A stretch of DNA of 64,000 nt from the NCBI RefSeq assembly GCF_000026545.1, contig NC_011601.1; one strand, given 5' to 3'. Below, in pieces: positions 48,083 to 51,000 of the stretch. Made by a program: the position numbers. Numbering within the stretch: the first letter of the stretch is position 1; each line of letters opens with the position of its first letter. The DNA comes from Escherichia coli O127:H6 str. E2348/69 (lineage in GTDB: Bacteria > Pseudomonadota > Gammaproteobacteria > Enterobacterales > Enterobacteriaceae).

Positions 48083-51000
48083 AGAAGACCGTCGGTTTCC
48101 AGTGTAACCTGCTCCTGATTTGCTTTACGTAATGTGGATACAGTCCAGTCCTTGACCTCCAGAAATACCAGCCCGTTATCCGGGTCAATAATGACAAAAT
48201 CCGGATGTCGGTTTTTCCGTCCCACCGGGATATCGTACCAGACAAAGCAATCATCATTCAGAAAGCTCTCCAGTCGTGAAGCCACCCTCCTCTCCCCTGG
48301 CGTCATTCTCTCCTCAGTGGACGCTGATATATTTATCAGTTTCGCCATAACATACTCATGCTCCAGTAAAACCATAACCGTCGACATATTCCGTCTGAAG
48401 GGAATATGTCGAATACTTCATTAAAATACAAACATTTAGTAAACTTCACTACGCAAGTGCAATTATCCAGTCCCGTCTAATGATTAAAAACGATAACCAA
48501 CTCCAACAGTAAATCCATTGACCGAATGTTTTCCATATATATCTGCTTTAGTTCCCTCATACCCAACATTTACAGACATATTGCCCCACGGATTAATAAT
48601 AACACCAGCTGCATAAGCAAAATCAGTGGATTTTTTTGATACAGACTCACTTAAATATCCATCAGACTCATCAGCACCCACACTGTTTCTCCACTCATAA
48701 TCTCCCTTCGCTTTAGTATGAGATATCCCCACCAAACCATAAAAACTGATATAGTCATTCAGACGATAAGCTGGGCCTGCGAGAAATGAATAATATTTAA
48801 TATCAGCCTGATGTCTGTAAAAATCGTCAGCTTCATCGCGATGACTGTCCGCCCAATCACCTTTCATATACGAAAAACTCCCGACGACACTGACCGGAGA
48901 ATCCCACTCATATCGATATTGCAGATTCACTCCTTTAATATTCTTAAAGTCCTGTACCTTACTCTGAGCATAACCAGCCGATAGCGTATGATTATCAGCC
49001 AGTCTTGAACCACTCATAACAGATAATATCATTACTGAAATTATAACGAGTTTTTTTCATTTAACCCTCCTTCATTAATAAATGATTTCTGAAAATCAAA
49101 AAGGACCACACATCTCAAAAACATTATTTGAAATCATCATCAAAAAACTATAAATATATCACCTGACGATTTGAACACACTGACAAAAAACCAAGCATGG
49201 TAATAAACCGAACTCCCCACAAACTTCTGTTGCCTCAGATACTCCCCCCCCCTTTCCTCAGGCACAAATGTTGTTCCATAACGAACCAGCCCTGTTCCTT
49301 TAAACTCTGCATCAATGGCATAATGTATACTCACCAGACTGAGTTTGCTCCTGCATCATTATTTCGATACGTTAATGCATTGTTCATTGCATCCGGCATT
49401 CCCCATCGAATATTTACTTTGTTATATCAGGCAGCCCATAACCAGGTAAATTTTTAAGGCTTACTGACTGAATATTCAAAATGTGTTACATGTTATCAAA
49501 CCTTTAAAGAATAACCTGCTCTTCTTCATTGGCCGGATTTAGCTCAATCTTGTCAGCAAAACTAATATAAAGCCGTTCATAAAGAGAAGGATGTAGCTTC
49601 GTTATTTATCTTTTACATGTAACAGTGCCAGGGGATATTCCGCACATCTCTGTGGCTATCATCCCCACCACGTCTCCAGTGGCAGCACCTGCGGCACTGG
49701 CACGGGCGTTATTTCCCTGTACCACCGCCAGTGCAGCATTCACCACGGCATGGGCTGCCACATTTGCAGTCTTATTCACCACACCTGTAACCTGTCTCTT
49801 ATACACAAATCCCCACCCGGGGATTTGTGATGTCTGTCAGTCTGCTTTAGGGGGACTCTTTCCATCCGGTAGTTTCCTTCCTCCCCGGCAGCGATTTTTT
49901 GAACTTTTTCTTCACCCGTTGATCTTCTCTTATATTTCATTTTCTTCGGGTCTGTTATGGTACTTTCTGATTGTTATTCACTGGCTAACGAGCAGTCTGG
50001 ACATGCCCGTCTCGGTGATCCGCGTCGTACACGACGCCTTGTGTCACTGACCTCTTCTCTCGCTCAGCATGCAGGTCTTTCTATTGTGAAATCATCCCAC
50101 TTCACTGCTCAGGTTGAAGGTGCGTACCGCCTGATACGTAACCCGTCGGTGTCCCCGTAAGCCATTGCCGAAGCCGGATTTACTGCCACTGCAAGGGCAT
50201 GTGAGGCACATCCGCTGCTCCTCGCGCTGGAAGATACCACCACCATTAACTTCGGTCACAGTACGGCATTTGATGACCTGGGGAATACCACCACTAACCC
50301 GAAGACGCACGGGCTGCTGGCTCACTCTGTCCTGATGTACGCCCCCGACAGCGCCCTGCCAGTCGATCTTATCGAACAGCAGTGCTGGAGTCGTGCCACG
50401 GACACCTACGGTGTTAAGCACCAGCGAAAAGAACGTCCCTGTGAAGAAAAAGAAAGTTACCGCTGGCAGCAGGCTTCGGAGCGCATGGCCGAACGGCTGG
50501 GGGAGATACAGAAACAGGTAATCACTGTCTGTGACCGGGAAGCGGATATCTGGCATTACCTGCATTATAAAGTCAGCCGCGGGAAGCCACACGCTGAATG
50601 TGATGCAAAAAGGCGGGCGGGCAGCCCGCCAGGCCCGGATGCTCATCAGTTACAGCGAAGTCAGCATAAAAAATCCCGACAACAGCGGCCAGGCGCTCCC
50701 GCTCACGTATGTCTGTTGCCGGGAGCAGGCAGAGGACGGCGCCTGCTGGCATCTGCTGACGTCAGAAAAAGTGGCGAGTGCCGCCGATGCGCGACGTATC
50801 GTCAGCCATTACGAGCAACGCTGGCTGATAGAGGAATACCACAAAGCGTGGAAAAGTGGTGGTACATGTGTGGAATCGCTGCGAATGCAGACCCGGGATA
50901 ACCTTGAGCGCATGGTGGTTATCGCGGTGCGGGTGCTGGGCCTGCGGCAGGGAGGTATCAGTGAAGAAACACAAAATGACAGCTGTGAGAAAATACTGAC

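Follow-up and report, generated by a model that had tools for sequence, protein, structure and literature searches.

Does the run of nine cytosines (C9) upstream of the pagC-like gene of Escherichia coli O127:H6 strain E2348/69 belong to a phase-variable promoter, or is it a piece of DNA whose length varies without consequence? The run lies in a stretch of 64,000 nucleotides of contig NC_011601.1 (assembly GCF_000026545.1), called the window below. A reading of this sequence alone had described it as a slippage-prone tract about 190 bp upstream of the gene, of the kind found in phase-variable promoters, and had counted it, together with a frameshifted run of seven adenines, as one of two potential slippage switches. 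Comparison of the locus with its relatives in other genomes points to another answer. The tract is most probably a neutral, slippage-prone homopolymer that was born by substitution in the 3' portion of a defunct tssE, a remnant of a type VI secretion system (T6SS) cluster.

The sequence read-out gives GATACT CCCCCCCCC TTTCCTC on the plus strand, and the nine cytosines occupy exactly positions 49244-49252. The distance given earlier was also correct, as the tract lies 184-192 nt upstream of the ATG of the pagC-like gene at 49060. This is the only run of G or C of at least eight nucleotides in the window, all other runs of this length consisting of A or T. Under a first-order Markov model of the window, 0.105 runs of C and 0.069 runs of G of nine or more nucleotides are expected, about 0.17 in total. 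C9 is thus uncommon, yet statistically unremarkable by itself (P ~0.16 per window). The second and last homopolymer of nine nucleotides in the window is A9 at 60478-60486, and A/T runs of 7-9 are abundant in the region 57.7-61.3 kb.

A query of 1221 nt around the tract was 100% identical to E2348/69, an enteropathogenic E. coli (EPEC) of serotype O127:H6, and matched 506 of 5426 complete E. coli genomes, in every case in the chromosome. The locus is the island equivalent to O-island 122 (OI-122) of O157:H7, where the pagC-like gene is named Z4321 or pagC. On the minus strand, the annotation of E2348/69 contains the Ail/Lom gene, upstream of it a tssE pseudogene, a small hypothetical open reading frame (ORF) and remnants of the insertion sequences (IS) IS66 and IS4, with espL2 beyond. 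The tract falls inside the tssE pseudogene and is therefore not anonymous intergenic DNA. An ORF of 86 codons crossing the tract on the plus strand (49197-49457, encoding 'PPP') has no Pfam match and is antisense to the tssE remnant; it was rejected as spurious.

The assignment to tssE, the gene of a T6SS baseplate protein, is based on homology and synteny. Codon-wise alignment with the intact tssE of A41, whose product matches Pfam GPW_gp25 (PF04965, 5.2e-15), gives 72% nucleotide identity over 403 aligned columns, and the remnant occupies the same place directly upstream of ail/lom as in A41. The Prokaryotic Genome Annotation Pipeline (PGAP) labels it in E2348/69 as 'GPW/gp25 family protein, frameshifted; internal stop', and the annotation of O157 concurs. 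The remnant has no intact reading frame. The start codon has changed from ATG to AAG, in-frame TAA codons are present at codons 32 and 38, and there are several frameshifting indels, those relative to A41 being +5, -43 (codons 69-83), -1 and +1, while the tract itself shows a net change of -3. It takes the place of TssE codons 129-133, which encode R-V-L-L-R in A41 and R-G-G-E in the window. The 64-aa ORF spanning the tract had no Pfam match when searched alone. Of the other cluster genes, none of tssJ, tssG, tssF, tssM and tssA is present at the locus; their place is taken by a CdiA fragment and IS elements.

Pairwise divergence averages 0.040 over the tssE remnant, 0.026 over the spacer between the remnant and the pagC-like gene, and 0.012 over the Ail/Lom coding sequence. 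The tract-bearing stretch is thus the fastest to diverge, as expected if constraint is absent. The PGAP pseudogene ends at 49140 in E2348/69 and at 49235, where it stops at the tract, in O157; it is 96 nt longer in E2348/69 because G9, with its net change of -3 relative to A41, returns the C-terminal 40 codons to the ancestral frame.

The origin of the locus can be followed through extant genomes. A41 has an 82%-identical version of it within an intact T6SS cluster, with the gene order tssM-tssF-tssG-tssJ-tssE-ail/lom-tssA (positions 3918-12897 of the A41 record). This comparison shows the 'pagC' module of OI-122 as an apparent descendant of a T6SS cluster. In lineages that lack the enterocyte-effacement locus (LEE), the same tssE stub and ail/lom are flanked upstream by a cdiA/tpsA-type hemagglutinin locus and downstream by an intact 3'-5' exonuclease gene, an arrangement that fits module III of the locus of adhesion and autoaggregation (LAA) of the literature.

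The birth of the run can be followed in the same way. The corresponding codons of A41 contain no G-run, the minus-strand allele being GGCCGGGTGTTACTGCGG. On the same strand, the allele is AGGGGCTGTGGTATC in CP55 and JNE120393, AGGGAGTGTAGTATC in SHP24, M9, S1-CHI-01-A and one metagenome contig, and AGGGGGTGTAGTATC in CE0007a; the cores in these related lineages are interrupted, reading GGGAGTGTAG, GGGGCTGTGG or GGGGGTGTAG. In ECL27977 and O157:H7 the allele is AGGGGGGGGAGTATC, that is, G8 within the same length of 15 nt, and E2348/69 with its G9 has one G more than these. This series of alleles across extant strains indicates that the run was born by T>G substitutions in DNA that was already non-functional and slipped afterwards, G8 being the likely founder length and G9 a +1 slippage product.

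CE0007a has, in addition, a second G8, some 30 nt further downstream than the tract site (corresponding to window positions ~49205-49220), where it reads GTGTGGGGGGGGCGG and the others GTGGGGAGTTCGG. Either the same pseudogene has given rise to one more run, by substitution or indel, or the assembly is in error here.

To survey the length of the tract, perfect matches were counted for four queries that differed in the length of the run, each bordered by 40 nt of flanking sequence on either side. Complete E. coli genomes with identical flanks carry C7 in 51 cases, C8 in 355 (the modal length), C9 in 10 and C10 in one; for C9, ten genomes are listed at 100% and the identity band gives 11. The expectation that the tract is prone to slippage was thus borne out, and length heterogeneity between strains, on which the sequence-only reading had made its proposal depend, is present. 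Both C7 and C8 also occur in metagenomes: of five contigs, three of them with SPAdes-style NODE names, two have C8, two have C7 and one has an interrupted allele. Six of the seven flank-divergent genomes that were inspected have interrupted alleles and the seventh (ECL27977) has G8.

Several of the minor lengths are shared by related strains. C7 is common to the O145:H28 strains RM12761 and RM13516, to TT12A and TT12B and to AR-0429 and AR-0430, and is also found in O103:H2 12009. In the E2348/69 lineage, C9 is present in each of three assemblies: CP059840.2, LT827011 and EPEC1 (LT903847), an engineered derivative. The dominant O157 haplotype is overwhelmingly C8, and O157:H7 SS TX 754-1 with C9 is a singleton within its group. 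Both assemblies of 86-24 have C8, as all three of the E2348/69 lineage have C9, these being consensus assemblies that are blind to minority variants. Such sharing of lengths by related strains points to alleles that are heritable and rarely change, and the polymorphism appears to be real, beyond base-calling artefact. Even where mismatch repair is proficient, as in E. coli, a G/C run of 8-9 nt is a hot spot of slippage, at a rate orders of magnitude below that of classical contingency loci.

EPEC1, an engineered effector-deletion strain, also has a deletion junction that contains a GAGCTC site and lies about 20 nt away from the tract (LT903847, ~3001-3072; window position ~49272), with G9 and the pagC-like gene kept.

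The gene downstream of the tract is itself disrupted. The ORF at 48484-49032 encodes 182 aa with matches to PF06316 (Ail_Lom, 8.5e-23) and PF13505 (OMP beta-barrel, 5.1e-22). The ancestral ATG at 49060-49058, preceded by a Shine-Dalgarno box, is out of frame with this ORF because of the A7 run that follows it. The window and O157 read ATG-A7-CTCGTT, and the in-frame A6 allele MKKLVIISVMILSVMSGS (MKKLVIISVM...) is found in CP55, CE0007a, ECL27977, M9 and JNE120393; A41 has A7 followed by T and is likewise in frame. Exact-flank counts gave A7 in 396 genomes and A6 in 10, and all ten A6 genomes are other, mostly animal-associated strains, with none from O157, O26, O111 or O127. Because A6 revertants are absent among the main-clade strains listed, A7 appears to be an inherited frameshift fixed in the LEE-positive island and not a frequently toggling switch. 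Of the two slippage switches proposed earlier, the A7 frameshift is thus real as a lesion but does not toggle, and the C-run does not vary among the three E2348/69-lineage assemblies. PGAP starts the pagC-like gene at an ATA codon in O157 and at an internal ATG in E2348/69. In the literature found, pagC/Z4321 is a marker of module 1 of OI-122 and is otherwise discussed by analogy to Salmonella and Citrobacter.

The A-run varies further. SHP24 has ATG-A8-CGTT, which is in frame (MKKNVIIS), and S1-CHI-01-A has A7 with an annotation shortened to 549 nt. The latter looks like an independent second frameshift at the A-run in another lineage, which would make the run a recurrent site of inactivation.

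We found no recognisable promoter or regulator motif at the tract. No sigma-70-like pair of -35 and -10 boxes spanning 49244-49252 was detected in a consensus-level scan. The nearest promoter-like match on the strand of the gene, at 49175-49147, begins about 70 nt downstream of the tract and overlaps the 3' end of the tssE remnant, since the annotated remnant ends at 49140. The other match on this strand, at 49386-49358, is upstream of the tract. The scan yielded five matches against 2.2 expected by chance and is thus weak evidence; applied to the intact A41 locus, it gave nothing in the spacer. The spacer in the window contains the Shine-Dalgarno box (GAAGGAGGG) and a block conserved in A41 just 5' of the ATG. 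No PhoP box, defined as (T/G)GTTTA-N5-(T/G)GTTTA with up to two mismatches, was found within 48446-52018, and over the whole window there were 22 matches against 16.3 expected by chance. A search of Rfam at a permissive E-value over 48300-50000 gave nothing beyond an rliG match (E=0.4) that is attributable to chance and falls within the Ail/Lom coding sequence. No direct or inverted repeats and no hairpin involving the tract were observed in 49050-49450. The coordinates of the features are collected in the table.

Table. Features of the tssE-pagC region, in window coordinates.
Feature	Positions	Strand	Basis
pagC-like Ail/Lom outer-membrane beta-barrel gene (Z4321 homologue)	48484-49060	minus	ORF, annotation, alignment, Pfam
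A7 run directly after the ATG (T7 on the plus strand)	49051-49057	minus	alignment; genome counts
Spacer between the tssE remnant and the start of the pagC-like gene	49061-49139	minus	alignment with A41, CP55 and O157
Promoter-like match TTCAAA-17-TATAGT, 9/12	49147-49175	minus	consensus scan only; not conserved in A41
tssE (GPW/gp25, T6SS baseplate) pseudogene remnant	49140-49605	minus	PGAP (identical E2348/69 record, locus 4741-5206), alignment to A41
C9 on the plus strand, G9 on the strand carrying tssE and the pagC-like gene	49244-49252	minus	sequence, codon-wise alignment, C7-C10 polymorphism

The tract is also not conserved as a run, being interrupted in CP55, JNE120393, SHP24, M9, S1-CHI-01-A, CE0007a, A41 and one metagenome contig. 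Among the inspected lineages with an intact pagC-like gene, G8 is found in ECL27977 only. Most lineages with an in-frame start of the pagC-like gene thus have no run, and therefore it is not a conserved regulatory element. Nor is the gene that a switch would regulate intact in the window: its ATG is put out of frame by A7 here and in 396 genomes.

How do the other explanations fare? The G-run could lie in or upstream of the pagC-like promoter, where changes of one base would alter promoter geometry or activator phasing and so switch or tune transcription. The C7-C10 polymorphism between strains is real, the downstream product is an outer-membrane protein of the Ail/Lom family, a class typical of phase variation, and activator phasing could matter at the distance of about 70 nt that separates the tract from the nearest promoter-like match. 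However, the earlier placement of the tract in a phase-variable promoter did not hold, since it lies inside a disrupted tssE that evolves faster than its surroundings, no -35/-10 pair crosses it and no PhoP box is near, and most lineages whose pagC-like gene is intact have no run or an interrupted one. Moreover, the frameshift of the target gene is fixed in the very genomes that bear the run, and three assemblies of the E2348/69 lineage agree on C9. To our knowledge, mismatch repair is complete in E. coli, and the phase-variation systems described for the species work by inversion or Dam methylation, not by G/C runs. We consider transcriptional switching or tuning improbable, and a regulatory role of the tract in general appears unlikely from the sequences. 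A narrower variant, for which we see very little chance, is that the G-run, despite its birth in a pseudogene, has been co-opted in LEE-positive E. coli, where it would act upstream of the pagC-like promoter as a 'tuning knob' for spacing, G7, G8 and G9 altering Ail/Lom or read-through transcription. If true, it would be a contingency element based on a simple sequence repeat in a species whose switches are believed to work by inversion and methylation, and any regulatory reading would make the tract a rare case of homopolymer-based expression variation in mismatch-repair-proficient E. coli.

The polymorphism itself could be an artefact, the ninth C and the C7, C9 and C10 variants being homopolymer errors and the true length C8 throughout. 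Homopolymer length errors are frequent in long-read-only assemblies, and several variants are singletons in clonal O157:H7, such as SS TX 754-1. However, C9 recurs in three separate assemblies of the E2348/69 lineage, C7 is common to sets of related strains and to whole serotype groups (O145:H28, O103:H2), and both C7 and C8 are seen in metagenome assemblies, of which three have SPAdes-style NODE names; an artefact of this extent is highly improbable. Finally, the G-run might toggle the frame of the T6SS baseplate protein, as it lies in the tssE frame and G9 keeps the C-terminal 40 codons in the ancestral one. Here the lesions upstream of the tract, namely the lost start codon, the two in-frame stops and the 43-nt deletion, together with the loss of the remaining T6SS genes from the locus, effectively refute a translational switch, to which we assign practically no probability.

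Several points weigh against a neutral tract. The literature found on Z4321/pagC in OI-122 consists of marker-gene and review statements, with nothing on the transcription start site, on expression or on the tract, so that a promoter or activator site near the tract is possible. The consensus scan is a coarse tool, and AT-rich promoters acquired by horizontal transfer are often poor matches to the consensus. A spacing change of 1 bp some 70-110 nt upstream of a promoter can matter if there is an upstream activator, as at the fim promoters of Bordetella. About 15% of the alleles are non-modal, which is much variation for one site, though expected of a G8-9 run. The length counts span about 417 of the 505 matching genomes, the other 88 or so having substitutions in the flanks, and some of the variants seen in single genomes assembled from long reads could be base-calling errors.

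The neutral homopolymer accounts for the locus as follows. The pagC-like Ail/Lom gene would first have been situated between tssE and tssA of a T6SS cluster, and nothing but the Ail/Lom gene and a decayed stub of tssE would have been left in the island of LEE-positive E. coli. Two T>G substitutions in the unconstrained stub may then have turned GGGGGTGTAG into G8. Replication slippage would subsequently have produced G7, G9 and G10, and the alleles would have been passed down sublineages, E2348/69 having received the +1 allele G9. With tssE already disrupted at seven or more other sites, changes in length make no difference to coding, and most likely they have no effect on transcription of the pagC-like gene, which has a +1 frameshift, fixed in the lineage, at its A-run. 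As the tract matters neither to tssE nor, probably, to the pagC-like promoter, its variants drift and are inherited.

On this reading, the candidate phase-variation switch falls away and the tract is debris of a degraded T6SS cluster, of small biological weight. It has some practical importance, as a C7-C10 site in the widely used 'pagC' marker region of OI-122 can make assemblies, and likewise the pseudogene calls of PGAP, differ spuriously, as between E2348/69 and O157. The fixed 5' frameshift of pagC/Z4321 in LEE-positive lineages should also temper its routine description as a 'virulence factor'.

The neighbours of the locus differ between lineages. The NERD-domain/3'-5' exonuclease gene downstream of ail/lom (47431-48387, minus strand) is truncated in the window by an IS66 element (tnpC, 46182-47630) and is intact (1746 nt) in CP55, CE0007a, SHP24, M9, ECL27977 and JNE120393. 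On the other side of the tssE remnant, a hypothetical ORF of 66 aa (…NVAAHAVVNAALAVVQGNNARASAAGAATGDVVGMI…; 49606-49806, minus strand) has no Pfam match. In the LEE-negative relatives the equivalent site follows genes with VENN pre-toxin and hemagglutinin-repeat domains, of the CdiA/TpsA type, and this ORF is probably a remnant of a CdiA C-terminus or of an orphan module.

Among known systems, the DNA of the tract is closest in descent to tssE of the T6SS, being homologous (72% at the nucleotide level) and syntenic to the intact A41 gene; unlike that gene, the copy in the window has lost its function, and the other parts of the cluster are missing. The promoter of Salmonella pagC is activated by PhoP and SlyA and silenced by H-NS. 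The locus resembles it in having a gene of the Ail/Lom family with an AT-rich upstream region (here 29-40% GC). However, it has no PhoP box with up to two mismatches in the interval searched, and its upstream region is the tssE remnant, which is not homologous to the pagC leader.

Promoter phase variation by poly-G or poly-C tracts is known for porA and opc of Neisseria meningitidis and for fim2 and fim3 of Bordetella pertussis. There, as here, a G/C run of similar length is situated upstream of a gene for a surface protein and differs in length between isolates. In those systems the tract lies between the -35 and -10 boxes or between an activator site and the -10 box, the run is present in all strains, its length varies within cultures and the gene is intact. 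In E2348/69, by contrast, no promoter was recognised across the tract, and the gene has a frameshift; tract length is uniform within the lineage, and most sister lineages do not have the run.

A close parallel is with the polymorphic mononucleotide repeats of non-coding or decaying E. coli DNA, which were reportedly described by Gur-Arie and colleagues in 2000 and are said to have been used for typing by Diamant and colleagues in 2004. The tract shares with them a run of 7-10 nt outside functional coding sequence, differences of one or two nucleotides between strains, inheritance in sublineages and no known phenotype. It differs in that it consists of G/C, runs of which are rarer in E. coli than those of A/T, in that it lies in a horizontally acquired island, and in that its birth inside a pseudogene can be traced through extant alleles. 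The tract is thus a fresh instance of a well-known type of sequence.

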